In this document: positions 1-55,724 of the stretch, in pieces
Numbering within the stretch: the first letter of the stretch is position 1
Layout of the letters: the number at the start of each line of letters is the position of its first letter
Source of the DNA: Candidatus Omnitrophota bacterium
GTDB taxonomy: Bacteria; Omnitrophota; Omnitrophia; Omnitrophales; Aquincolibacteriaceae
Direction of reading: 5' to 3'
DNA length: 64,000 nt
Assembly (NCBI GenBank): GCA_043732705.1
Contig: JAYTHE010000025.1
Location: forward strand, 315 to 64,314
Made by a program: the position numbers and the translations under genes
The notes under the pieces: generated by a model
Told to the model about the DNA's origin: nothing
The model's database searches: none
The model's input: only the letters and a program-made list of their open reading frames with translations

Positions 1-1238
1 CCTGTGAACAATTCATCTTTTGGATCTTTGCCCGCCAGCTGCGCAAGCTGAGCTTCACTGCGGTGAATGACAGGAATAACGGGCAGGCTAAATTTTTTGG
101 CAAATTCAAAATCCCGCTCATCATGCGCAGGCACAGCCATAATCGCGCCGGTGCCATAACTGGCGAGAACATAATCCGCGATCCAAATCGGAACCGGCTT
201 TTTATTAACCGGGTTGACCGCATAAGCACCCGTAAAAACTCCGGTTTTAGTTTTGGCTAAATCTGTTCTTTCAAGATCGGATTTATGCTGCGCTTGAGTT
301 TGATACTCCGTCACGGCCGATTTTTTAGAACCTGTTGCAATTTTTGAAACAAGCGCATGTTCCGGCGATAAGACTAAATAAGTCGCGCCGAAAAGCGTGT
401 CGGGGCGGGTTGTGTAAACTTTGACAGCCAGATCATTTTGGCTGTCATTCCCGCGAAAGCGAGAATCTAGTCCTGGATCCCCGCCTTCGCGGGGATGACC
501 TTCTCCTTCAATTTGAAAGGTCACCTCAGCGCCGGTTGATTTCCCGATCCAATTACGCTGCATTTCCTTAATGGATTCGGGCCAATCCAACAACTCCAAA
601 TCTTCCAAAAGCCGGTCCGCATAAGCCGTGATTTTCAAAACCCATTGCCGCATCGGCTTGCGAATTACAGGGTGATTACCGCGTTCACTTTTCCCGTCGA
701 TGACTTCTTCATTCGCGAGAACGGTTCCGAGTGCCGGACACCAATTAACAGCAATCGAAGCTTCATAAGCCAAGCCTCTTTCATAAAGTTTCATAAAAAT
801 CCACTGGGTCCATTTGAAATAACCGGGATCTGTCGTATTCACTTCGCGATCCCAGTCATAACTGAAACCGATGCGTTGGATTTGGCGGCGAAAAGTATTA
901 ATATTTTTTTCGGTGGTTGCGCGCGGATGCGTTCCGGTTTCAATTGCGTATTGTTCGGCCGGCAAACCGAATGCGTCCCAACCGATCGGATGCATGACAT
1001 TGAAACCGCGCATACGTTTGTAACGCGCGAGAATATCAGTGGCGGTGTAGCCTTCTAAATGACCGACATGCAAACCCGACCCCGAAGGATAAGGAAACAT
1101 ATCAAGAATATAGTATTTAGGTTTGCTAGCGTTTTCACCGGTGGGATCAGGTGTGCGAAAAGTTTTATTTTTAACCCAATAGTCCTGCCATTTGGGTTCG
1201 ATTTCGGGGAATGGATATTGCTTAAAGCCGGATGCCAT
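1..1238 (-). CDS. leuS: Leucyl-tRNA synthetase, N-terminal part. The gene continues past the window start. ATG at 1236-1238.
   Basis: Manual reverse-strand translation gives [21 protein letters not shown]...[21 protein letters not shown] (HIGH motif), then [21 protein letters not shown] and [16 protein letters not shown] (CP1/editing region). The ORF track misses it because it runs off the window edge. Confidence 0.85.
444..499. repeat. Family-1 GC-rich palindromic element, copy A, lying inside the leuS coding sequence.
   Basis: gtcattcccgcgaaagcgagaatctagtcctggatccccgccttcgcggggatgac. Two hairpins (attcccgc-gaaa-gcgagaat and atccccgc-cttc-gcggggat). Related copies at 21906, 45652 and 47827. 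Read through in-frame as [19 protein letters not shown]. Confidence 0.75.
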
Positions 1239-1245
1239 AAAACTA

Positions 1246-1266
1246 GACCGGAGACCGGAGACCGGA
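1246..1266. repeat. Tandem heptamer (accggag)x3 immediately upstream of the leuS start codon.
   Basis: accggagaccggagaccggag. On the coding strand this reads GGTCTCC x3 about 10 nt before the ATG. Confidence 0.6.
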
Positions 1267-1365
1267 GACTATAGACTGAAGACAAAAAACCATAAATTAC
1301 TTTTTGTTTAAGCTGCGAAAAATTTTGCGCAAATCACTTCAACACCCATAATTTCAAATGATTTT

Positions 1366-1476
1366 TATCAAAAGGTGTTAGATGCTAGGCGAAAATGAGC
1401 GCCCGCGGAGGCGTAGTGGAAACCTACGCCGCACAAGGAAGCGAAATTTTCAACGACGCAGATGACGCCTTTTCAT
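1366..1476. repeat. Family-2 element of about 113 nt, copy 1. Candidate MITE or structured RNA.
   Basis: Core cgcccgcggaggcgtagtggaaacctacgccgcacaaggaag with flanking ttcaaaaag / ctttttca near-inverted termini. Shares this with copies at 1674, 17458 and 54187. Directly abuts the tRNA-Leu 3' end. Confidence 0.7.
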
Positions 1477-1488
1477 AAAAATCAAGAA

Positions 1489-1573
1489 TGCGAGAGGGGG
1501 GGGTCGAACCCCCACGCCTTTAGAGGGCGCTGGATTTTGAGTCCAGTGCGTCTGCCAGTTCCGCCACTCTCGC
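1489..1573 (-). tRNA. tRNA-Leu, anticodon CAA, type II with a long variable arm.
   Basis: GCGAGAGTGGCGGAACTGGCAGACGCACTGGACTCAAAATCCAGCGCCCTCTAAAGGCGTGGGGGTTCGACCCCCCCCTCTCGCA. Anticodon loop CTCAAAA, T-loop GTTCGACC. No CCA encoded. Confidence 0.85.
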
Positions 1574-1673
1574 AAGAAAAAATATTGTTACGCTACTCTA
1601 TTAAAGAGAGTTGGCGCCCTTCGTTCATGTGCGCTAGTCGCGCCATTCACTGCGGGCCGGCCACTCATTTTTT

Positions 1674-1783
1674 TTCAAAAAGTGCTGGATGCAAGGCGAA
1701 TGCAAACGACCGCGGAGGCGTAGTGAAACCTACGCCGCACAAGGAAGTGCAGTATTCAACGATGCAGACGGCGACTTTTCAAA
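1674..1783. repeat. Family-2 element, copy 2.
   Basis: gaccgcggaggcgtagtgaaacctacgccgcacaaggaag core. Ends 7 nt from the tRNA-Ala CCA end. Confidence 0.7.
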
Positions 1784-1790
1784 AAAAATT

Positions 1791-1866
1791 TGGTGGACCT
1801 GAGGAGAGTTGAACTCCTTACCCTCTGCATGCCATGCAGATGCTCTACCAAATGAGCTACAGGCCC
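1791..1866 (-). tRNA. tRNA-Ala, anticodon GGC.
   Basis: GGGCCTGTAGCTCATTTGGTAGAGCATCTGCATGGCATGCAGAGGGTAAGGAGTTCAACTCTCCTCAGGTCCACCA. G3:U70 alanine identity pair, anticodon loop ATGGCAT, CCA encoded. Confidence 0.9.
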
Positions 1867-2011
1867 AAGAAAGTGAATTGTGAATCGTGATTAGTGATTC
1901 GCATCAACTTTTTCTTATATATCAAACTGCTTTATCCCATTCGCGTGTCGAGTTGACTTTGTCAACTGCACGCCAAAAACAACTGTGCACCTGCTATCGC
2001 AGGATGCGGGC

Positions 2012-2028
2012 AAATGAGCTACAGGCCC
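2012..2028. repeat. 17-nt direct duplicate of the tRNA-Ala 5' end.
   Basis: aaatgagctacaggccc is identical to 1850-1866. Confidence 0.7.
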
Positions 2029-2129
2029 GAAAAATATTTAAAAGATCAGCCGGTGCAAGAGTGCAGCCGGAGACGAGGAGTCTAGTTGAAAAAATGATTT
2101 TTTCAAGAAGAACCCGATTTTCGAAAAGG

Positions 2130-2510
2130 TCACTCTTTAGCGAAAAGAGTATCAGGTTTAATGATGGCCCCTTCCTGATCCCCCGGTACAAAGCCGGTCA
2201 CTAAATCCCAAATACCCGCAGTACCGCGCATCAATGTCCGAACAATTCCATCCGTAAAACCCGCGACTTCGCGAATACCGGGCTGGCTTTTGTCTTCTTT
2301 GTGATACTTCATCACGGTGACCGGAATTTCTAATGGGCAAGTCACTAAGTTTGTAAGCCCACGCCCCCAATCATGCGCCAGATTTTTAAAATAGCCAGGC
2401 TGAGTGCGCGTATTGGTTCCAAACCTCGCATCATACTCTGCCTCCAAGGCAAAAGCCGGGAGTTGGGAGAAAATGAGTCCGATAAAAAACAGAGTTGCAA
2501 CTTTTTTCAT
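2130..2510 (-). CDS. Small secreted hypothetical protein. Likely start is at MKKVATLFF, with a signal peptide.
   Basis: The ORF gives MKKVATLFFIGLIFSQLPAFALEA followed by a soluble roughly 100-aa domain. No confident family call. Confidence 0.5.
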   Translation of the reverse strand: MKKVATLFFIGLIFSQLPAFALEAEYDARFGTNTRTQPGYFKNLAHDWGRGLTNLVTCPLEIPVTVMKYHKEDKSQPGIREVAGFTDGIVRTLMRGTAGIWDLVTGFVPGDQEGAIIKPDTLFAKE

Positions 2511-2722
2511 ATATTTTTCCTCATAATTTTTGACCAGGAATTGTATCAATCTTTAACCAAGACGACTACACCTAGATAAGTTTGAATAACTAAACCTGTT
2601 TTCTTTAAACCGGCCTAAATTCCTTATTAAAGTTTTAAGTGGGTCCGCCGAAACCTGTTATTACCTCGGAACCTTTCGGTTTCAAGTCAATATGCTGAGT
2701 CAAAATCAGCTAAGGAGCGACT

Positions 2723-2914
2723 GTGAAAGCAAATTATCAGTGTCAATCATGCAGCTACTCGGGCGACGAGGCCCATTTTGACACTAAAATTCTTTCTATC
2801 ATGTATCGCCCTAAGCATGACAATGTTCAGGCTTTTAAACAGATCAAATGTCCGCAATGCCATAATCTCGTGACCATTATCTTCGAAACACTTGACGGCA
2901 GCATCGCTAAGTAA
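2723..2914 (+). CDS. Putative small zinc-ribbon protein of 63 aa.
   Basis: Two CxxC pairs (CQSC...CPQC). It sits alone in an intergenic gap and is not well supported. Confidence 0.3.
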   Translation: MKANYQCQSCSYSGDEAHFDTKILSIMYRPKHDNVQAFKQIKCPQCHNLVTIIFETLDGSIAK

Positions 2915-2965
2915 TTTTTTGCTCTGAGCGCTTCGCGCACAACCGCCCAGCATCGCACCCAGCTT

Positions 2966-3748
2966 TTAAAACCTAAATTTTTCTTTTTCGAAAACTTTTC
3001 GCAAAGAATCAAGCTGGTTATAATCCGTCTGATCAATTGAAAGCGGCGTTAAAGCTGCCCAGCCTGAACGCATCAGTTCTTCATCGCTTGTTCCGTCAGG
3101 AGCAAGCAAGTGAATGCCGCCAGCGAGTTGATAGAGGCGGGTTTTACTCTCTTTTTCCAACTGACTAGGCTCAAAATGCAAAAACTCTTCGACGAAGCGC
3201 GAGTAGGCTTGTTTCGCCAATTTAAAACCTTTGATTTCGTTCAACGGAAGCGGTGGCACAGAAACGTTCAACAGTAACGGAACGATCCCTTCCCTTTTCC
3301 CAAAGTAATTCAACAATTTCGCTGTCAATTCCGTAGCAGGCTCGAAATCCTCAAATGTCTTACTGCAAAGCGATACGGCGAGCGACGGAATGCCATTAAT
3401 AACGCCTTCCCGCGCGGCGGCCACGGTTCCTGAATAATAAACGCTAATTCCGGTATTCGCTCCGCGGTTCACACCTGAAACAATCCAATCCGGTTTGAAC
3501 CCCGATTCGGTAACCGCCCATTTCACACAATCCGCAGGTGTTCCTTCAACTTCATAAATGGCTAAATTTTTCTGAATTTTTTCTTCACGCACTAAAATAC
3601 GCTCATGAATCGTCACGGAATGGCTTGTCGCGGAACGTTCCCGATGCGGCCCCGCCACTAGAATTTCATGATCCCGGCTCAGCCGCGCCACCAACTTTGT
3701 AAGTCCGGGCGCAAAAAGCCCATCATCGTTTGTAATGATAATTTTCAC
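2966..3748 (-). CDS. surE: 5'/3'-nucleotidase SurE.
   Basis: MKIIITNDDGLFAPGL...VAGPHRERSATSHSVT, the conserved SurE N-terminal signature. Confidence 0.85.
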   Translation of the reverse strand: MKIIITNDDGLFAPGLTKLVARLSRDHEILVAGPHRERSATSHSVTIHERILVREEKIQKNLAIYEVEGTPADCVKWAVTESGFKPDWIVSGVNRGANTGISVYYSGTVAAAREGVINGIPSLAVSLCSKTFEDFEPATELTAKLLNYFGKREGIVPLLLNVSVPPLPLNEIKGFKLAKQAYSRFVEEFLHFEPSQLEKESKTRLYQLAGGIHLLAPDGTSDEELMRSGWAALTPLSIDQTDYNQLDSLRKVFEKEKFRF

Positions 3749-4509
3749 GATATTTCTCCGAAATGAATAAGACGGATACTATGTTTTTCCAGCAGTTTTT
3801 TCAAGTATGGTAAAGAAAAAAGTGCATGTTCTTTTTCGCGTGGGACCGTCATAGAAGTTAAACCCTGCAACTCTTCATCCCAAATTCCGGGATGGCACAT
3901 CACCTCAGCCCTTCCGGGTAAAAGAGCGGCCAAGTTTTTTTCTAGCTTTTCGGCAGTCCAATAAGCATGCGCGTCCAAGTTGCCTAAAAGGGTCTGCGTT
4001 GTCACGAGTCCGGGATACTTTTTAAAAAAATCGGGCTCACGCATAAGGGCAGATCTTCGTATCGGAAGTTTTCTTTCGCGGGCAACATGCAAGATTGCCT
4101 GAAAAAAAACGGGCTCATCATGCATTTGATGATGTGTGTCCAGGTGTGTCGGCGTCCGTCCAAAATATTTCTCAAAAAGCGCGATTTGCCTGCCGTACTC
4201 CCGGACGAGATCGGAAAGCATCGGAGGCGATTTTAAATAATCTTTTTTCTTTTTAAAAAGCCGCGAATCATCAACCAGCGAAACAATATCACCGGGACTT
4301 GATACCGGAATACCCGATGTGACGTTCAAATGTAATCCTACGCCCAAACCGCTTTTTGCCACGCGTGAAACCATTTCCAAATCAGTCGGACGATTTACCA
4401 TCCAAGTCGTACTGCTGACAATTCCTGTTTCATGACATTCTAAAATAGCCCGAGTAACGCCGTTGGTTAAATTGCAATCATCCGCATTGACGATCAGTTC
4501 ACGCAGCAT
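3745..4509 (-). CDS. YdjC/ChbG-family carbohydrate deacetylase-like protein.
   Basis: MLRELIVNADDCNLTNGVTRAILECHETGIVSSTTWMVN fits the YdjC N-terminal pattern. The ATG at 4509 is preferred over the GTG at 4533. Overlaps surE by 4 nt. Confidence 0.6.
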   Translation of the reverse strand: MLRELIVNADDCNLTNGVTRAILECHETGIVSSTTWMVNRPTDLEMVSRVAKSGLGVGLHLNVTSGIPVSSPGDIVSLVDDSRLFKKKKDYLKSPPMLSDLVREYGRQIALFEKYFGRTPTHLDTHHQMHDEPVFFQAILHVARERKLPIRRSALMREPDFFKKYPGLVTTQTLLGNLDAHAYWTAEKLEKNLAALLPGRAEVMCHPGIWDEELQGLTSMTVPREKEHALFSLPYLKKLLEKHSIRLIHFGEIS

Positions 4510-4948
4510 TTTTTGCACCGGACGCCATCCCACGGGGAGGTGTTAGCTTTCTAACGCTTCCCCGTGGGACGGTGTCCGTTAAAGCAACCCAGGCGATTGC
4601 TTGTTTGCGTTCATGCGCGAGCGAAAGCAATAATGTTTGATTTCGTTTGATCCCTAATTCGCGGTTCAAATTTGGAGATAAAAGCAAGCAAGGCTTTCCG
4701 CTGCTCTTTTTTTTAATTTGAATTTGAAGCATTCGCTTGGCCCATTGCTTTGCGGGAATTCGAAAAAGGGCAAGACAAGCCTGCTTTGCGGCAATACGCG
4801 CGGCAGCCGGTTCGGCAAAATGGCGTTTTGATTTACAGTAACGAATTTCACCGGCGTTTAAAAAACGGGCAAGAAAATCGGGATGGGTTTCGGTCTTCTT
4901 TTTAACGGTAGAAACTGAAATTTGTACAATTTTCTGGCGCAAAATCAC
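4499..4948 (-). CDS. acpS: Holo-ACP synthase (4'-phosphopantetheinyl transferase), a divergent member. Possible GTG start.
   Basis: IVQISVSTVKKK...AARIAAKQACLALF...SLAHERKQAIAWVALTD aligns with the AcpS layout (EAxxKA and SLSHE-like motifs). The start codon is uncertain. Confidence 0.5.
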   Translation of the reverse strand: MILRQKIVQISVSTVKKKTETHPDFLARFLNAGEIRYCKSKRHFAEPAAARIAAKQACLALFRIPAKQWAKRMLQIQIKKKSSGKPCLLLSPNLNRELGIKRNQTLLLSLAHERKQAIAWVALTDTVPRGSVRKLTPPRGMASGAKNAA

Positions 4949-4958
4949 AAAGCAAGTT

Positions 4959-5270
4959 TTAAAGCGGGCTCAAATAACCACGCGTCAGCCAATACACTAA
5001 CCCTGCCGCGATCAAAATACCAATGATATAGAAATTATTAAATTTCCAAAAATCTCGCAACCGGCCCCAAACCGTATTTTGTTTGACGGGATTTTCACGG
5101 TTGGCAAAAACAGTTTCTTTGAGATGCAGAACGTCTTCTTTGCGAAAACGCAAATATTGTCCGCTAATTTTATAGGCCTGGAGCTTCCCGTTTTTGACGA
5201 ACGCATCCAAATCTTCGGAACTGATGCGTAAAAACTGGCGTGTCTCCTCAGGAGAAAGAAGGTTGTTCAT
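4959..5270 (-). CDS. Membrane-anchored protein with an N-terminal excisionase-family HTH.
   Basis: LLSPEETRQFLRISSEDLDAFVKNGKLQAYKISGQYLRFRKEDVLHL is HTH_17-like. C-terminal TM segment FYIIGILIAAGLVYWL. The start (5270 or 5306) is uncertain. Confidence 0.55.
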   Translation of the reverse strand: MNNLLSPEETRQFLRISSEDLDAFVKNGKLQAYKISGQYLRFRKEDVLHLKETVFANRENPVKQNTVWGRLRDFWKFNNFYIIGILIAAGLVYWLTRGYLSPL

Positions 5271-5334
5271 ACTTTTATACTTTTGTTCTGCACCGAAAAG
5301 CAACAACGCTTGCGATCAACCTGTAACTCCAAAA

Positions 5335-5847
5335 TTAAGCTTTTTGCTTTTGAAGCCAGCCATCTACTGCTGTTTTGGAAAAAACTGTGTTACCATTTTC
5401 GCGGCGCACAGGAATTTGATTGTTCTTAACAAGATCTTCCACAACGCGCGATTCAAGATCAAGATATTGTGCAACATCCCGTAAAGTCAGAGAAACATCT
5501 TGTCCTGAAATTGCGGAGGCTTTCATGGTCACATGTCCCTCAATCACGGCGCCTTCCCCGACCGAAAGACGCGGGGTCACAATGTCGCCTTCAATGGAAG
5601 CGGGAGAAACAACAGAGAGACTTTGCAAAGCGGTTATATTTCCGACAACCTTTCCGGCAATAATAATATTATCACCATGAATACTGGCGCGAACCTTCGC
5701 GTTTTCACCGATAGTCAGTGTGCCGCGAGTATCAAGTTTACCTTCAAAAGTACCATTGATGCGTAAATTGACAGGATCTTTAAATGTGATCGTGCCTTGC
5801 ATGCTTGCGTCGACATCGAGAATTTTTTCTTCGATTTTTTTTGCCAT
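5335..5847 (-). CDS. Bactofilin-family protein fused to a C-terminal excisionase-type HTH.
   Basis: Bactofilin beta-helical repeats (GTFEGKLDTRGTLTIGENAKVRASIHGDNIIIAGKVVGNI...). C-terminus LTLRDVAQYLDLESRVVEDLVKNNQIPVRRENGNTVFSKTAVDGWL is HTH_17-like. Confidence 0.7.
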   Translation of the reverse strand: MAKKIEEKILDVDASMQGTITFKDPVNLRINGTFEGKLDTRGTLTIGENAKVRASIHGDNIIIAGKVVGNITALQSLSVVSPASIEGDIVTPRLSVGEGAVIEGHVTMKASAISGQDVSLTLRDVAQYLDLESRVVEDLVKNNQIPVRRENGNTVFSKTAVDGWLQKQKA

Positions 5848-5922
5848 GAATTTTTTCCCCTCACTTTAAGAAACCCTGCGAATCCGTCCCTACTAATGGA
5901 TAGCGGATTATACTCGGGGACC

Positions 5923-6609
5923 ATGACCTCGGACAAGAAATGCTTGAATCTTTTTCCGACCCTCGCTATGCTTCCCACCATGATTGAGATATTGAAAGAA
6001 TTTTTCTCGCAGCTTCACCACCTCCCCGAGCTGATCCGTTGGGGCGGATATACCGTCTTATTCGTGATCATCTTCGCGGAAACAGGCCTTCTAGCGGGCT
6101 TTTTCCTGCCCGGCGACTCATTGCTCGTAACCGCCGGACTTGTTTGCGCCTTGGACGGGCAAATGAAAATCGAAATTCTCTTGGCATTGCTATCCGCAGC
6201 GGCAATTCTTGGCGACAGCACAGGTTACGCGATTGGAAGGTTTCTCGGGCCCCGACTTTTTAGCAAACCCAACTCCTTTTTCTTCCGCAAAAGCCATCTT
6301 GAAAAAACGCATGCTTTTTATGAGAAGCATGGCCCCAAGACAATCATTCTCGCCCGTTTCGTCCCAATTATCCGTACTTTTGCTCCGACAGTAGCGGGTG
6401 TGGGCGGAATGAGCTACGGAAAGTTCCTGACCTATAACGTTTTGGGTGGAATTTTGTGGGTTATCAGCATGACTTCCATCGGTTATTTTCTCGCCCGCAC
6501 CATCCCCGGCATTGAAAAAAAGATCCACTATGTTATTTTGATCGTGATCTTTCTTTCAATCCTCCCGATTGTGAAAGAAGTTTGGTCCGCTCGCAAAAAG
6601 AAAAGTTAG
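5923..6609 (+). CDS. DedA/VTT-family membrane protein.
   Basis: GYTVLFVIIFAETGLLAGFFLPGDSLLVTAGL...ILARFVPIIRTFAPTVAGVGGMSY. The start (5896, 5923 or 5968) is uncertain. The ORF 5' end overlaps the bactofilin gene. Confidence 0.75.
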   Translation: MTSDKKCLNLFPTLAMLPTMIEILKEFFSQLHHLPELIRWGGYTVLFVIIFAETGLLAGFFLPGDSLLVTAGLVCALDGQMKIEILLALLSAAAILGDSTGYAIGRFLGPRLFSKPNSFFFRKSHLEKTHAFYEKHGPKTIILARFVPIIRTFAPTVAGVGGMSYGKFLTYNVLGGILWVISMTSIGYFLARTIPGIEKKIHYVILIVIFLSILPIVKEVWSARKKKS

Positions 6610-10951: not shown

Positions 10952-11518
10952 CTAGATTTCGTGAAGCTCGACTTCTTTTTGTTTCGATGCTTCATCAATC
11001 TTTGCAGTAAATTCGTCAGTCACTTTTTGAATTTCTTTTTGTACGGTACGAGATTCGTCTTCTGAAATTTCTTTGGATTTTTCACCTTTTTTAATCACTT
11101 CAATCGACTCATGACGCGAAGCGCGGATCGCAACCCGGCCTTCTTCGGCGCCTTTTTTAACCATTTTTGTCAATTCATTGCGGCGTTCATCCGTTAACTG
11201 TGGAACCGTAATGCGGATAATTTTTCCGTCATTCATTGGTGTTAATCCCACTTCGGATTTCAAAATCGCTTTTTCAATTTCAGCCAAGCCGGTCGCGTCC
11301 CACGGTGTAATCGTTAAAGTCTTCGCATCGGCGGTTGAAATCGCAGCCATCTGTTTCATCGGTGTCATCGTCCCGTAATAATCCACCATAATATTATCCA
11401 CAAGCGAAACCGCCGCGCGGCCTGTACGCAAACTTTGAAATTCTTTTTTCGTAGAATCAAAAGTCTTTTCCATTTTTGCGCGCATTTGCTTGACTAAATC
11501 TTTTGAATTGATCGGCAT
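10952..11518 (-). CDS. frr: Ribosome recycling factor.
   Basis: MPINSKDLVKQMRAKMEKTFDSTKKEFQSLRTGRA...RNELTKMVKK is canonical Frr. Confidence 0.9.
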   Translation of the reverse strand: MPINSKDLVKQMRAKMEKTFDSTKKEFQSLRTGRAAVSLVDNIMVDYYGTMTPMKQMAAISTADAKTLTITPWDATGLAEIEKAILKSEVGLTPMNDGKIIRITVPQLTDERRNELTKMVKKGAEEGRVAIRASRHESIEVIKKGEKSKEISEDESRTVQKEIQKVTDEFTAKIDEASKQKEVELHEI

Positions 11519-11527
11519 AAATTTTCC

Positions 11528-12247
<720 letters not shown>

Positions 12248-12307
12248 CTATTGTCTTTGAAACAGATGTCGAGCTGAGGAGCTTAGCTCCTCCGCTGCAT
12301 CAAAATG

Positions 12308-12967
12308 TTAGACCCCGCCGACTTCGAAACGGACAAAACGGCGAATCACGATGTTTTCACCGATGACCGCAATCGTTTCGGAAACATAATCCTGAATCGT
12401 TTGCGAATCATTCTTAATGAACTTCTGGTTCAAAAGGCAAATATCTTCGTACCGCTTCGCAAGCTTGCCTTCCAAAATCTTTTCGCGTACAGGCTCAGGT
12501 TTGTCTTTTACAGAATCAAGAAAAACCGCTTTTTCACGTTCAATCACATCAGCCGGAATTTGATCCGCGCTAACATAAAGCGGGAAAGCGGCAGCGATAT
12601 GCATTGCGATGTTGCGCGCAAACTCTTGGAATCTGTCATTCTTAGCCACGAAATCGGTTTCGCAATTAATTTCAAGCAATACACCCAATTTCCCGCCGGC
12701 GTGAATATAAGAAATAATTTGCCCTTCACGAACTTCGCGTGAAGATTTTTTCTTCGCGGAGTCGAGCCCCTTTTTACGGATAACATCTTTAGCAGCTTCA
12801 AAGTTGCCGTTCGCTTCAACAAGCGCCTTCTTAACGTCCATCATTCCCGCGCCGGTCAATTCACGGAGTTTAACGATATCTTCTTTTGTAAAATTTTCTG
12901 TGTTCACGGTCATAAACCCTCTATCGTTTTCATCGGCGTCGAGCAGAGCCAAGCTCTGCTGCGCCAA
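12308..12967 (-). CDS. tsf: Elongation factor Ts.
   Basis: EDIVKLRELTGAGMMDVKKALVEANGNFEAAKDVIRKKGL. Confidence 0.9.
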   Translation of the reverse strand: MAQQSLALLDADENDRGFMTVNTENFTKEDIVKLRELTGAGMMDVKKALVEANGNFEAAKDVIRKKGLDSAKKKSSREVREGQIISYIHAGGKLGVLLEINCETDFVAKNDRFQEFARNIAMHIAAAFPLYVSADQIPADVIEREKAVFLDSVKDKPEPVREKILEGKLAKRYEDICLLNQKFIKNDSQTIQDYVSETIAVIGENIVIRRFVRFEVGGV

Positions 12968-12977
12968 AAATATTTCG

Positions 12978-13760
12978 TTACTGTTTTGCGGCGGATGAGT
13001 TCAGCGCTTCTTCGGCTGCGGCGTCAATTCCTGCGTCAGCCTCAGGCTTTGCTTCAGCGTTCTGATGCATCCGAAATTCATTGTTACCTTCCAAGGCCAC
13101 GCCCGCGATCGCATCACAAAAAAGCGTAATCGCTTTGATCGCGTCGTCATTGCCTGGAATCGCGATATTCACAAGCTCAGGATCCGCGTTTGTATCCGCG
13201 ATTGCAACGATGGGGATCCCCAATTTTCTTGCTTCCAATACGGCGATCTTTTCTTTTTCAAGATCGATGATAAATAGCGCTCCGGGAAGTTTTTTCATTT
13301 CGCGGATACCGGAAAGATTTTTTACAAGCTTTTCACGTTCTTTGCAAAGCGAAGAAGCTTCTTTCTTGGTGACGTACGCGAATTCGCCATTCTTTTCCAT
13401 CGTATCGATATCTTCAATTTTTTTGATGGATTTACGGACAGTTTCAAAATTGGTCAACATACCACCAAGCCAACGTTCATTTACGAAAGGCATATTGCTG
13501 CCCTGTGCTGCTTTCATCAAAGGGTCTTGCGCTTGTTTTTTTGTTCCGACAAACAAGATCGTCTCGCCCTTCTTCGTGATTTCACGGACAAACTTCAAAG
13601 CTTTGTCGAGAATCTTGGCGGTGATTTCAAGATTAATAATATGAATTCCGTTACGGTCGCCAAAAATGAACGGTTTCATTTTCGGATTCCAACGCTGCGT
13701 TTGATGCCCAAAATGTGCACCGGAATCTAAAAGCTGTTTAATGGTAACTTTCTCTGACAC
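12978..13760 (-). CDS. rpsB: 30S ribosomal protein S2.
   Basis: VTIKQLLDSGAHFGHQTQRWNPKMKPFIFGDRNGIHIINLE. Confidence 0.9.
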   Translation of the reverse strand: MSEKVTIKQLLDSGAHFGHQTQRWNPKMKPFIFGDRNGIHIINLEITAKILDKALKFVREITKKGETILFVGTKKQAQDPLMKAAQGSNMPFVNERWLGGMLTNFETVRKSIKKIEDIDTMEKNGEFAYVTKKEASSLCKEREKLVKNLSGIREMKKLPGALFIIDLEKEKIAVLEARKLGIPIVAIADTNADPELVNIAIPGNDDAIKAITLFCDAIAGVALEGNNEFRMHQNAEAKPEADAGIDAAAEEALNSSAAKQ

Positions 13761-22027: not shown

Positions 22028-25000
22028 CTATGCGGAAAACGCGATCACTAATTCCGCCATCAATTGCTGCGCGAACTCTGCCATCACTCTAAATTCTTTT
22101 TCTCCGAAAAACTCTTCACGCGACTTAATTTTATCTTCGGGAACTAAAAGCGCTAATGTCGGCAGCCCGGCATTTTTTGTGCTGTAAGCCGCGCGAATAA
22201 TTTTTTTATTTCCGGGCAATTTATTCAAAAACTCGGAGTAGCCGGCAATGCGGTCATGCTGCCCAAAAAAGATAACGCGTTTGTAATTTCCGCGCAAACC
22301 ACTAAAAAAATCAACCCTGTTTTCGTCCGTAAATTGCCTTTTCAATAAGTCGAAACGTTTTTGAGCTTGGGCGCTCAAAATTTTCGTTCGATTTACGCGC
22401 AAATTAATTTTGGAATTAAGCCCAAGCAATGCCACGTACTCATTAAATTGAGCTTCCGTCATTGCTCCGAGCGTTTCATCGTCTAAAATCAAAAGTGCGG
22501 AATCACTGATTTGGGTTTGTTTGAATAAACTTAAAATCATTGCGGCATGATCTTCGGACGTGAGTGGCGCGGATGTATCGCGTAACTCCGACCTTGCGAT
22601 GCCAGACTTCTCTTGATGATTTTTATAGCGCTTGGAAAACACTTCAAAAGCCCCTGCCATTCCGCGTAAACGGAACATCTCCTTGACTTGCGCCATCACG
22701 GCTTCGCGCCGTTCCGGCGGAACCATACCCAGAACAAAATCCACCGTTTCAAAATCAAATATTTCTTCTTTTGGCGGCAATGCTTCGACTGTTACTGGGT
22801 GATTACGCGAAACCATAATCAATTTATTTGATTCCTGCGATGGGAATGTAATTGTCTTTTCAAGACCCGGGCCGTTATTAATCCTGCCGCCCTTTTGGGA
22901 TACCCAAACGGCAAACATACTGGTGTCTGATATTTCCGAACTTTGAAAAACGATTTTTTCCAATTGTGGCGCTTGTTCTAAAATTGTTAGAATATTGGCG
23001 GTCTCTACCTGCCGATTGATAATCATTTCTTTCAGATTTCTGGCGGCGCTCAAATCAAACGGTATTTCATCCCATCTGCTGCCTTCGCGAATGACAAAGC
23101 GCTCCATATTTTGAGCACCATTGATCAATTTTTGAATTGCCGAAAAATCACTGCTGTCACTCCTTGCTACATAATCAAACTCTAATTCAAAATTTCTGAC
23201 TTGCGCCATATGCGGTTCAAATTCCGCTAAAAATGCGTGATCCAAATCAGCCCAATTATCAATTCTCAGGGCTAAGCTTTGTAATTCTCGGCCGCTTTTA
23301 CCCAATTGCGGCAAAATAAATTGCGCTGAACCCTGATCGACGTCTAATTTTTCTAAAAGCGGCAAATCCACAGGATTGCGTAGCACTCTAGAACTAGAGG
23401 GTTTATCTATAACTAATTCGGTTAGAGTATTCGCAAACTCATGAATCCACATCCGGCCAAAAACATTTGTTTTCTCTGTCGTCCTTATAATCAATCGTTT
23501 AATGGGAAATCGTAAATTTTGAATGAGTTTTTCAACCACATCGGTAAAATTTCCGCCTAAATTGGTCTTATCAAATCCCAATGAATGAATCTTACGGCCT
23601 CTTACCGCATCAAATACTCCACGCAAAAATTTTGCATCGTATGATTGTTCGCCGAAATAAAGCGAATCAAGATTGGGCATAACATCTATAATTTTTTTAA
23701 TTTTATCGATTGTTTTCTGAGTTGTCTCGGTCATGTCTAGCTTAATGGCGCGCAACTGAGAATTTTTTATAGCATCTAACAGAAAAGAAACTGCTTTCGG
23801 ATTTTCTTGGGCGGAATAATCAAAATGATCCTCCAAAACCAGCCCCTCTACCATTGGAAATTGTCTTTTTAAGTCTGGAAGAAACTTAGAGGCAAGATAC
23901 ATCTGCCAAATTGTTAAAAAAACTTTTCCGTCTTCAGCTTTAAATAAAGCTACACCGCTAAGCTGCATTTTTGCTAGTTTTTCGTTGTACTCAGCCGCGA
24001 TTTCTTTGGCGGATTTTTCGGATACCGAAGCTGAAGATGCGACCGACGGCGGTGAAGCCGGTTTAGTTTCGGAAAATACTATTGTAACTTCATGCAATCC
24101 AAAGGCATTCGCAACGAGATCAATGAGTATTTTAAACTGTCTGCCATGAGAAAGAAGAGACTGTTTGAGTTGCTGTGCATCGGAGATATCATTAACTTTG
24201 AATGCGATTTTTTTCAAACCGGGTAAATAGTCATTGATATCGTCAATACGCTCAATTCCAATACGGTTGTCGATCGTAAGTTCTTTGAGCTGCCGGAGTT
24301 TATGCAGACCCAAAGATTCAATATCCGCTAAGCTATCGAGATGAATATCGACCAAGGTTATTTTTTCAGCGTTTGGCACGCTCTTAATGTTGAATCGAAA
24401 ACCTTCAAGATCATCGGGGCGTGTCTGAACCGTGAGTTCCTGGATACCCCCAAAATAAGCGTTCAAAGTTCTCAATAAACCCCGGGCATTGGCATTCGAC
24501 GACACAAACGATAATTCTAGTTTCTTCAAGCTTGGCGTAATCGATTCAAAAAATTTCTCCGTATTGTCTACCACCGTATCGCCTGCGGCGGCGTTTAGAA
24601 AACTGCTGGATAGCGAAAGAGTTTGGATGGGGCGGCCCTTGATTGCATTCAAAACAATTTGCACAAATGCAGGGCTGTAGTCTGCTCCTCCAAAATAAAG
24701 CGCCTTTGTTTGGGACAGCTTTTCTAAGACCGTAATTAAATAATCGCGTCCAATCGTATCACTTTCATAAGCACGGCCCGTAAAATCACTGTCTTCTAAA
24801 TAAATTGCATCAAAATCTTGACGCAAACCCAAGATAAGAGTTCCTGCTGAAAAATCCAGATTGTCATCAAAGACAATACCGTCAATCTTTGGAAACTCTT
24901 TAAGAAAATCCAGATTGTATCGTTGACTATGCACATATAACGCTTGTTGAGCTTTTAAAAATACTCGGCCGTCATGCGCCCAAAAAATAAAATGGTCGGC

Positions 25001-52911: not shown

Positions 52912-54150
52912 CTATTCAAGCAGGGAGTAGAAATTGGAGACAGCGGGATCGGCAAAGATCGAGGAAGGCGTCCAACCGGACAAAGTCAGCCCCTGCTTGG
53001 TACGGACGCGGCTCAATGCTACATAAGCCTGTCCGGGCTCCCAAAGCGACCTTAAATCCACATGCGCACGGTCCAGGGTCGCCCCCTGAATTTTATGAAT
53101 CGTGGAGGCATAAGCGAGGTTCACGGGAAAATTCATGGCATGCGCGACTTCATCGCCTTCCGCATTATGAATCGAAAAACCAAAGGTCGTGACTTCGATT
53201 TGTTCGCCGTCGACTTCAACCGCCAAACTCTCTTCCGAAAAATCAACGACTTTGCCGACCGTACCGTTTACAAACCGCTGTTTGGGGTCATTAATGCGAA
53301 ACATTACAAGCGCGCCTTTTTTTAATTCGAGAACTTCTGGAATGGGCGCGTCTTTTTTAATTTGAGTGAGATACGGCTCTGCACCCAAATATTCTGTAGG
53401 AAAGGATTGCGAATCACTCGTGAGGCGTTTGAGGCAAATTAGATTATATTTTTCGGTTTGCTCACGGCGCGGAAAAAGGCGCGGCACACCGTCTTCCACC
53501 TCTTCATCAGAAATAACGAGCGAATCCAGAAAATCTTTGACCTCAAGATCCAATTTTCCAATGCGAATCTTATTCAGCACTTCCAAAAACGAGCTGTCTT
53601 TCGTACGGACTTGATCCTTCAAAACACAAATTTGAAAATCCGAACGCTGCCAGGCGGGAGAATCAAAGCACCAGCGTTTTTCCTGTCCGCGCGAAATCGG
53701 CGGCAGCTGCGCAAAATCCCCTACGGCCACGACACGAATACCGCCCCAGGGCGCGTTATTTTTTCTTACAATGCGCGCGACTTGCTCGGCACAATCAAGC
53801 GCATCGGCGGGAATCATGGAAACTTCGTCGATGACGATACAATCGCACTTTTTGATGCGTTTTTTAACGCGCGCGTTGGACGCGGCTTTTTCTAAAATCG
53901 CGGCCACGGGGCCTTGCATAATTCCGAGGCCAAAAAAACTGTGGAAGGTTCGTCCGCCAATCACAATCGCCGCGGCACCCGTCGAAGCAAGAATATCAAT
54001 CGCTACGGGAGATTCATTGAAAAAACGCCGGATAAGAAAACTTTTTCCCGTACCGGGGCCGCCGGTGAGAAAAACATTGCGTGCGGAATTGAGCAATGAC
54101 TCCCATGCAATTGTTTGCGAGCCAGTTAGCTCAATTTTTTTAGAAGTCAT
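52912..54150 (-). CDS. Pif1/RecD-like SF1 DNA helicase.
   Basis: Walker A FLTGGPGTGKSF. Walker B IVIDEVSMI. VAVGDFAQLPP. C-terminal YASTIHKIQGATLD and ALSRVRT. Confidence 0.8.
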   Translation of the reverse strand: MTSKKIELTGSQTIAWESLLNSARNVFLTGGPGTGKSFLIRRFFNESPVAIDILASTGAAAIVIGGRTFHSFFGLGIMQGPVAAILEKAASNARVKKRIKKCDCIVIDEVSMIPADALDCAEQVARIVRKNNAPWGGIRVVAVGDFAQLPPISRGQEKRWCFDSPAWQRSDFQICVLKDQVRTKDSSFLEVLNKIRIGKLDLEVKDFLDSLVISDEEVEDGVPRLFPRREQTEKYNLICLKRLTSDSQSFPTEYLGAEPYLTQIKKDAPIPEVLELKKGALVMFRINDPKQRFVNGTVGKVVDFSEESLAVEVDGEQIEVTTFGFSIHNAEGDEVAHAMNFPVNLAYASTIHKIQGATLDRAHVDLRSLWEPGQAYVALSRVRTKQGLTLSGWTPSSIFADPAVSNFYSLLE

Positions 54151-54338: not shown

Positions 54339-55724
54339 TTAGTCGGCTTCGTTCATGGAGACAATGCGGAGAAACAAAGAGCCAATGCGGGATTTACCGT
54401 TCAAAGTTAAATCCGACACCACAACTTGATTGATGCGGTTTTTGCTATCATCGGTCATGGAATAACGCTCAGCCCAAGTGCAATGAATCACATAATGTAA
54501 ACCATTGATTTGCCCCAGATAAAGCATGATGTGATGCGGCATGCGGATCAACGTGATGCCTTCGCGTGCAATCGCTAAAGTAGCAATTTTCTGGCCTTCG
54601 GCGGTAAAGGGCTCAAAGCTGTTCAAAAAAGTTCCGATCACACCCTGTTCTTTGGAATTGCGCGGCACTTCAATCCCCATACTCATAAATACGTCGAAAG
54701 TAAAACCGGAGCAATCACGGCCTCCCCAAAAATTTCCCCAGCCATAACGCGCGCCTAGCAACTTAAACGCCTGGCGGATCATATTGCGCTGGGTATAAGG
54801 CAAGCGTCCCTTGGAGACGTCGCTTGATTTACCGATATAAACTTTCTCCAGAGAAACATCGCCGCCCTTACCACGCACCGGCAAAAGTGATTCATAATAA
54901 TTGGCCGTTTCGCCTTGAATCGGAAAATGCGTACCCATGCTTGCTTCCGTGCGTACTTCCGTTAAACCGGGATTCGCAAAAACCGGAATTTCAGAACCGG
55001 TCGCAATTAAATAGTCATGCTTGCGAATAACATAAGACTTCAGCTTTTCCTGTGAATCAAAAACAGCAAGATCACGGGTCTTCACCCAACCGCGCACATA
55101 CGGCGCCTGAACATAAGACCATGCGCCATCTTTCGTCGTGTGATAAATCGCGACAGGCGACCATGTTTTTATTTTGCTGTATTGCACCATATCAAATTCA
55201 ACATCGCCTTTTTCCTCGAGCATGCCGACATCCGTCGGAATCGCGCGTGCGGAAGCGTATTTAACTGCCGCAGCCCAACGCACTTTGATTTTTAAAGGAA
55301 TGCTATCAAGCCGCATATTGGGTTTGATGTCATCTTCAAAAAAACTTTTGGGAATATATTTATCATCTTTGTTAAATAATTTGCGGTTCGCGATGGCCCC
55401 ATATTCACTTTTCGCGAGCGCTTTTACTTCGGAGCCGGACACAGTGTTTTTAATTTTGAAAACATTTATGCGGTCATCCGAAAACCGGACGATTTCATCG
55501 TTGAAGCTTTCAACCTGAGCGTCGGTCTTGATTACTTTATCCGGGGTTTTGAGACGATTGATCCAAAAATCAGCCTTAAACATTTCAGGCGTGTCGCTTG
55601 TCAAAAGCAAAGGTCCTTTCGGAAGCGGCGGCAATGTTTTTTCCAGCTCCTGAGCGCGAACGGGAGAAGTAATTAAAAGAATGGCGATAAATAACGCGGA
55701 AATTTTTCGAATTTTAAAACTCAT
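54339..55724 (-). CDS. Secreted NlpC/P60 (C40) peptidase with N-terminal SH3-like domains.
   Basis: Signal peptide. C-terminus YGWGNFWGGRDCSGFTFDVF...IMLYLGQ...HCTW carries the catalytic Cys/His. Confidence 0.75.
   Translation of the reverse strand: MSFKIRKISALFIAILLITSPVRAQELEKTLPPLPKGPLLLTSDTPEMFKADFWINRLKTPDKVIKTDAQVESFNDEIVRFSDDRINVFKIKNTVSGSEVKALAKSEYGAIANRKLFNKDDKYIPKSFFEDDIKPNMRLDSIPLKIKVRWAAAVKYASARAIPTDVGMLEEKGDVEFDMVQYSKIKTWSPVAIYHTTKDGAWSYVQAPYVRGWVKTRDLAVFDSQEKLKSYVIRKHDYLIATGSEIPVFANPGLTEVRTEASMGTHFPIQGETANYYESLLPVRGKGGDVSLEKVYIGKSSDVSKGRLPYTQRNMIRQAFKLLGARYGWGNFWGGRDCSGFTFDVFMSMGIEVPRNSKEQGVIGTFLNSFEPFTAEGQKIATLAIAREGITLIRMPHHIMLYLGQINGLHYVIHCTWAERYSMTDDSKNRINQVVVSDLTLNGKSRIGSLFLRIVSMNEAD

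Follow-up and report, generated by a model that had tools for sequence, protein, structure and literature searches.

The 64,000-nucleotide stretch of Omnitrophota DNA analysed here (the window) carries on its minus strand two adjacent genes whose products join a bactofilin to a pair of related winged helix-turn-helix (wHTH) domains, and this pair is conserved across the phylum Omnitrophota, in every related genome examined. The first gene (A) encodes a bactofilin with a wHTH domain fused to its C-terminus, and the second (B) a small protein in which a homologous wHTH precedes what looks like a C-terminal membrane anchor. In the reading we favour, to which we assign a probability of roughly 40%, A and B make up a bactofilin scaffold that is anchored in the membrane and coupled via the paralogous wHTH domains, any contact with DNA being made by B. 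The relevant features, in window coordinates, are the following.

5335–5847, minus strand: gene A, bactofilin–wHTH fusion, 170 aa (open reading frame, Pfam Bactofilin and HTH_17, AlphaFold2 model)
5530–5823, minus strand: bactofilin β-helix domain of A, residues 9–106 (Pfam, conserved columns, Foldseek)
5341–5493, minus strand: C-terminal MerR/excisionase-type winged HTH of A, residues 119–169 (HTH_17, model, Foldseek)
4959–5270, minus strand: gene B, putative tail-anchored wHTH protein, 103 aa (HTH_17; start corrected to ATG 5270)
5112–5261, minus strand: wHTH of B, residues 4–53, with the invariant wing AYKI(G/S)GxYxRFRKE (profile matches)
4983–5054, minus strand: juxtamembrane motif DFWKFNNFY of B (residues 73–81) running into a predicted C-terminal transmembrane helix (residues ~79–96; conservation, hydrophobicity)
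2966–4948, minus strand: genes downstream of the pair that usually travel with it, AcpS-like (4499–4948), YdjC (3745–4533) and SurE (2966–3748)
5907–5936, minus strand: candidate sigma-70-like promoter 60–90 bases upstream of A (TTGTCC, 18 nt spacer, TATAAT; consensus match only)

Both halves of A are identified by profile and by fold. Residues 9–106 match Pfam Bactofilin (PF04519; 83.7 bits, where the gathering score is 27.9; E 1.1e-23) and residues 120–168 match HTH_17 (PF12728, E 3.9e-7, 30.6 bits against a threshold of 27), bearing out the first-pass annotation of this gene as a bactofilin β-helix with an excisionase-like C-terminal HTH. The N-terminal turns of the bactofilin domain are near-invariant (EKILDVDASMQGTIxFKDPVNLRINGxFEG). 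An AlphaFold2 model of A built on 18 homologues (mean pLDDT 84.8) consists of a β-helix at residues 16–108 (pLDDT about 85–97 over residues 21–110), a low-confidence linker at residues ~109–118, and the winged HTH at residues 119–169, formed by helices 122–128 and 133–141, a hairpin at 148–157 and a helix at 158–169 (pLDDT 85–91). Foldseek aligned the core with BacA (2n3d) and the Thermus bactofilin (6rib) at target TM-scores of 0.84 and 0.90, and the C-terminal domain with RdfS, BldC, RacA, NmlR, Pukovnik Xis and pSK1 Par, at probability 1.0 for RdfS, BldC, RacA and Xis. The hydrophobic residue at the C-terminal end-on polymerisation interface, F105 in TtBac and F130 in BacA, corresponds in the alignment to I102 of A, where the whole family has Ile or Leu.

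The product of the next gene had been described from the outset as the same kind of HTH followed by a transmembrane helix, a description that stands: B matches PF12728 at 31.2 bits (threshold 27), ends in a hydrophobic stretch, and carries a wHTH homologous to that of A (hhalign probability 97.4%, E 1e-11, 23% identity). Since B homologues all open with MNN(L/M)L, the start was placed at ATG 5270 and not at TTG 5306. From its N-terminus the protein comprises the wHTH, a Lys/Arg-rich linker, a near-invariant DFW(R/K)FNNFY motif and a hydrophobic helix with which the chain ends. A motif of this type is kept, with small variations, in all 66 homologues of B, and it also appears in distant partners. 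The best 19-residue Kyte-Doolittle window averages 2.13 over these homologues and is followed by a median of two residues, and Lys/Arg residues average 3.4 in the 20 residues before the hydrophobic helix versus 0.3 after it. This terminal hydrophobic helix, together with the basic bias preceding it, makes B look like a tail-anchored membrane protein with a cytoplasmic wHTH. The AlphaFold2 model of B has the wHTH topology as well as helices at residues 67–77 and 79–100, but at a wHTH pLDDT of only ~60 (mean pLDDT 65), and owing to this low confidence it was left out of fold searching; the weakly modelled wHTH fold is backed by a profile match to BldC (E 2e-6).

The pair is widespread within the phylum. 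A protein search returned 1293 relatives of the fusion, the best 120 of which all contain both Pfam domains within 169–199 aa; every organism-named protein among those best 120 belongs to Candidatus Omnitrophota/Omnitrophica. PF12728 is precomputed on nearly all homologues, and automated pipelines already tag the two domains. Scanning one genome per species located a fusion relative in at least 404 genomes, and the 80 loci listed from these come from Omnitrophota or unnamed metagenome-assembled genomes (MAGs), plus one labelled Planctomycetia. Members of a divergent branch, about 45–50% identical, are Omnitrophota by name except for one MAG labelled Elusimicrobia. Among 18,209 bactofilin matches from an exhaustive profile search, the full-length architecture is represented by ~25 clusters (at 50% identity). 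The close matches also include other unusual bactofilin architectures: of two such representatives (P0149 and P0154), one has a C-terminal region that by eye looks like PilZ and the other C-terminal hydrophobic helices, and several other bactofilin matches look like frameshifted fragments.

The first-pass annotation had proposed examining synteny in related genomes, and here fusion and partner proved to be conserved together. When six proteins from the window were compared by tblastn with the 80 loci listed of the at least 404 genomes, B lay directly downstream of A in 79 of the 79 loci that reach past A. AcpS follows B in 76 of these 79, YdjC is found in ~67, and SurE often; the A–B pair also occurs without AcpS, YdjC and SurE. 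In two divergent relatives with different flanks (AIR carboxylase in one, SNase and a TilS-like gene in the other) the fusion is still followed by an HTH_17 protein of 101–105 aa that has the same juxtamembrane motif and C-terminal helix, and in some genomes the stop codon of A overlaps the start codon of B. Because the pair is kept where flanking genes differ, the conserved unit is the pair itself and not the wider neighbourhood.

Other neighbours of the pair include DedA/VTT, Cu/Zn superoxide dismutase and Sua5, with rpsB-tsf-pyrH-frr further upstream. The latter cluster (window 10952–13760, minus strand; positions 1–1865 of L081/L082) lies a few kb from the pair, in a placement common to the window and a relative only 63% identical, while the intervening genes differ. 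The neighbours examined, in the window and in L081/L082, include no integrase, ParA/ParB or defence gene, and PADLOC returned no defence matches. Membership of the MADS defence system was considered and rejected: MAD1 is the top NCBIfam match of the A wHTH, at 25 bits against a cut-off of 80, and, as stated, there are no PADLOC matches. Elsewhere in the window, a single open reading frame at 22028–44695 (minus strand) encodes 7,555 aa, for which Pfam gave only weak P-loop matches (AAA_5/AAA_16/AAA) at residues ~1408–1537 and nothing in the remaining ~6,000 residues. A PIF1-like helicase gene (52912–54150, minus strand) adjoins an SH3b-NlpC/P60 cell-wall hydrolase gene (54339–55724, minus strand); both are unrelated to the pair.

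This context bears on whether the wHTH could belong to a mobile element, as its excisionase or recombination directionality factor, and stand beside a bactofilin by chance, or whether the fusion is an artefact of assembly or gene calling that joins two genes. HTH_17 is indeed an excisionase-type family, and many homologues have been named 'excisionase family DNA binding protein' by JGI. Both proteins, however, score below the cut-off of the TIGR01764 'excise' model (22.3 and 21.2 versus 28.8), the neighbours are housekeeping genes with no integrase or recombinase nearby, and the same in-frame fusion recurs in at least 404 species-level genomes and in more than 1000 protein clusters from independent assemblies. 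Gene context and recurrence in hundreds of independent genomes exclude this explanation, the probability of which we regard as negligible.

Canonical bactofilins attach to the membrane by means of a short peptide at their N-terminus, and in BacA this peptide, MFSKQAKS, needs F2 and K4/K7 (PMC12448750). An MFSK-like targeting peptide, typical of bactofilins though not defining for them, is absent from the 66 members of the A family. At residue 2, 57 of the 66 have Ala and none has Phe, 46 have no hydrophobic residue at positions 2–8, and the N-terminus reads MAKK followed by acidic residues. Nor does A contain, on average over these members, any segment of transmembrane-strength hydrophobicity. 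The only evident membrane route for A would be B, and bitopic membrane proteins with cytoplasmic tails, such as PbpC, are known bactofilin clients (PMC12448750). The relationship is not one of simple substitution, since a distant fusion with a targeting-like N-terminus (MFKRK) has a B partner. A distant fusion of Bactofilin and HTH_17 domains in locus L083 (positions 290–5567; JGI 3300009777, contig Ga0105164_10002154), the 188-aa protein P0281, begins with MKFFSQKKRN, which resembles a membrane-targeting peptide, and no wHTH-TM partner lies downstream of it; its gene run also holds a Volactin-family gene (PF25216) and a 465-aa ParA/MinD-like ATPase. The idea of B as a plain replacement of the targeting peptide, which meets a mixed pattern in these distant proteins (the MKFF fusion lacks B, the MFKRK fusion has it), was consequently not used as evidence.

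The two winged helices differ in their resemblance to DNA binders, although the close structural relatives of both are all DNA-binding proteins. For the B wHTH, profile comparison points to BldC and to Pukovnik Xis (E 4e-5). B has invariant Arg residues at the positions of BldC Arg48 and Arg50, and R41, R43 and K44 are invariant in its wing. In BldC, Thr29 makes a phosphate contact and Arg30 a base-reading contact (PMC5859096); the Arg30 position of B is basic in 44 of 66 sequences, whereas the Thr29 position of B is occupied by Glu in 54 of 66 and by one or other acidic residue, Glu or Asp, in 59, and B is without equivalents of Lys26 and Arg47. Its wHTH is near-neutral in charge on average. 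Canonical DNA binding by B is plausible.

For the A wHTH the best solved sequence match is RacA, a weak one (E 0.068). The wings are similar (PARF-ENGxWxF in A, PAER-NELGHYSF in RacA, in common PAxR..G.[WY].F), and A keeps equivalents of RacA Lys15, Trp20, Gly34 and Tyr36, with Arg or Lys at the Lys15 position in 57 of 66 sequences and Trp at the Tyr36 position in 60 of 66. However, RacA Arg19, which is described as completely conserved and as contacting DNA in a specific as well as a non-specific manner (PMC4914108), and with it BldC Arg30, represents the key base and phosphate contact of these proteins (PMC4914108, PMC5859096), and this position in A is Glu or Asp in 64 of 66 sequences, preceded by Glu in 62 of 66. 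The recognition helix of A reads E-x-[RK]-V-V-E-[ED]-[WL]. Basic counterparts of BldC wing residues Arg47, Arg48 and Arg50 are missing from A, its wHTH has a pI of 4.5–6.3 and a net charge of 0 to -4, and acidic residues make up at least 85% of each of eight of its columns, among them E132, E137 and E/D138 of the recognition helix. The change from Arg to Glu/Asp and the acidic charge render canonical DNA binding by the fused wHTH doubtful, and they weaken the earlier suggestion that the polymer itself binds DNA directly.

A different arrangement is one in which the polymer displays DNA-binding winged helices and the tail-anchored partner binds DNA too, so that a chromosomal region would be held at the membrane in the manner of RacA–DivIVA. 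Several features would suit it, among them the RacA match of A with its similar wing and conserved Lys, the kinship of B with BldC and Xis, which form head-to-tail multimers on DNA (PMC5859096), and the fact that both domains adopt folds of DNA binders. In RacA the oligomerising domain lifts DNA affinity from 9.2 µM to 58 nM, about 150-fold (PMC4914108), and a bactofilin polymer could do likewise; a phylum-wide, highly conserved pair is also what would be expected of a core cell-biology function. Against this stand the altered recognition residues and acidity of A, its lack of a basic wing, and the near-invariant Glu of B at a phosphate-contact position. No common DNA motif was found upstream of the operon in 65 loci, and A would have no link to the membrane unless an A–B contact or DNA itself bridged the two. 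On balance we consider this tether possible but somewhat unlikely. Its more specific form, a nucleotide-independent device for chromosome anchoring or segregation, in which a filament with one DNA-binding domain per subunit and a tail-anchored DNA-binding partner would zip part of the chromosome to the membrane of the very small Omnitrophota cells, appears unlikely. The original proposal of a DNA-positioning or anchoring module thus retains some footing in the weak RacA match of A and in the BldC/Xis match and basic wing of B, while the recognition residues and charge of A speak against it.

The region upstream of A was inspected for sites at which either wHTH might act. Besides the promoter candidate of the window, inspection by eye of the sequence directly upstream of A shows, in most related loci, an AAGGAG ribosome-binding site and a pair of hexamers resembling TTGACA/TATAAT. 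The first-pass annotation had suggested looking for nearby repeated motifs as binding sites; over 65 loci, the 110 bases upstream of A share no operator-like motif and no inverted or direct repeat beyond close relatives. One subclade (L020, L023, L024, L027, L029, L031, L035, L036, L038, L039, L042, L044 and L046) has a near-identical leader before the start of A, TTTTTTACCCCACAATGTCTCCAAAGGAGA, preceded in some members by TTGACA, 17 nt and GATAATAAT; close relatedness alone might account for this leader, or it may be a conserved 5' UTR element.

A regulatory role would follow a direct precedent. BacR (YhbD, DUF4004) of Bacillus subtilis is an HTH protein encoded in one operon with the bactofilins BacE and BacF; it binds DNA in vitro, the bactofilins bind near its HTH and displace it from DNA, and it is located at the membrane only when they are present (PMC13649987). 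By analogy, one or both wHTH domains of the Omnitrophota pair might constitute a transcription factor, acting for instance in autoregulation of the operon, whose access to DNA is switched by capture on the polymer or at the membrane. That A has a promoter-like site of its own in the window and in most loci agrees with such sequestration, as does the regulatory function of BldC, a transcription regulator and the closest solved relative of B. Yet upstream of A the 65 loci conserve no repeat beyond promoter and ribosome-binding elements, neither A nor B matches DUF4004 at E values up to 0.1, B has no sensor domain beyond its membrane helix, and a permanently tethered, tail-anchored factor would reach few targets. 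We therefore view this regulatory role as distinctly improbable. The BacR system shares with the Omnitrophota pair only an HTH gene in one operon with a bactofilin, and differs in that here one HTH is covalently fused to the bactofilin while the other HTH protein is, by prediction, integral to the membrane. For the statement in the first-pass annotation that bactofilins normally recruit ParB/PadC through protein contacts, BacR, encoded with bactofilins and bound by them, offers a partial precedent.

We return to the membrane-anchored scaffold, which is favoured by the strict pairing of the genes, the paralogy of their wHTH domains, the lack of a targeting peptide in A, the tail anchor of B, and the contrast between the acidic surface of the A wHTH and the basic wing of the B wHTH. 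In this mechanism A would polymerise via its β-helix as canonical bactofilins do, and the winged helix, borne on a flexible linker of ~10 residues, takes the place of the usual disordered C-terminal tail. The A wHTH, which has lost the DNA-contacting Tyr-Arg pair of its family and presents a conserved acidic surface, would dock on the paralogous, more basic wHTH of B. B, in turn, would be held in the inner membrane by its C-terminal anchor with its wHTH in the cytoplasm, and may by recruiting A stand in for the missing membrane-targeting peptide of A. Any DNA contact there may be would more likely be made by the BldC/Xis-like wHTH of B, and B might switch between DNA and A in the way described for BacR and its bactofilin partners in Bacillus. 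Weighing against the scaffold are the close structural relatives of both wHTH domains, all of them DNA binders, the retention in A of equivalents of RacA Lys15, Trp20, Gly34 and Tyr36, and the distant MFKRK fusion that has a B partner despite its targeting-like N-terminus. A search for coevolution between the domains, using inter-protein mutual information with average-product correction over 66 A/B pairs (effective number ~41), gave wHTH–wHTH column pairs that score like control regions, a result that is uninformative at such depth. The scaffold, tether and regulatory models are not mutually exclusive.

Comparison with known systems places the pair between several of them. With canonical bactofilins such as Caulobacter BacA and Thermus TtBac, A has in common the Pfam domain, a right-handed β-helix of ~100 residues and the hydrophobic interface residue, and it departs from them in having no MFSK-type peptide, a folded wHTH in place of the disordered tail, and an always-adjacent partner predicted to reside in the membrane. 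RacA, the chromosome anchor of Bacillus subtilis, resembles A in combining a MerR-like wHTH, a flexible linker and a self-associating domain, with equivalents of its wing, Lys15 and Trp20 kept in A, but the order of the domains is reversed, the oligomeriser is a coiled coil in RacA and a bactofilin in A, the invariant Arg19 is Glu/Asp in A, and no DivIVA link is known for A. BldC, Xis and RdfS, small MerR-like wHTH proteins that form head-to-tail oligomers on DNA, resemble B by profile match, by the Arg48/Arg50 equivalents and by the frequently basic Arg30 position, whereas B appears to be tail-anchored in the membrane, bears Glu at Thr29, lacks Lys26 and Arg47, and has neither a recombinase nearby nor known target repeats. 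In Myxococcus xanthus the bactofilin scaffold BacNOP positions DNA-bound complexes through PadC and ParB/ParA (PMC5703909); the link to DNA is indirect there, running via the adaptor PadC and ParB, and no ParA/ParB gene accompanies the Omnitrophota pair.

No description of a bactofilin–wHTH architecture or of the A–B pair turned up in full-text literature searches that combined bactofilin with helix-turn-helix, excisionase or Omnitroph*, in line with the first-pass view that the arrangement had not been described for bactofilins. The pair appears unstudied, and A appears to be a bactofilin, conserved throughout a phylum, to which a folded domain of client type is fused and which has an obligatory membrane partner. 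Bactofilins are widespread, but only in a handful of species is it known which clients they have and how they are attached. The pair would offer a ready-made bactofilin client, consisting of a fused folded domain and an obligatory membrane partner that are both small and soluble enough for in vitro work. It is also a conserved marker of how cells are organised, in a phylum whose cell biology has hardly been approached by experiment. Should the two wHTH domains pair with each other, they would provide a clear case of a DNA-binding fold turned into a protein–protein connector, and HTH proteins would, after BacR, be tied to bactofilins in a second, independent way; should they bind DNA, A would be the first bactofilin to contact DNA directly, without ParB-type adaptors.
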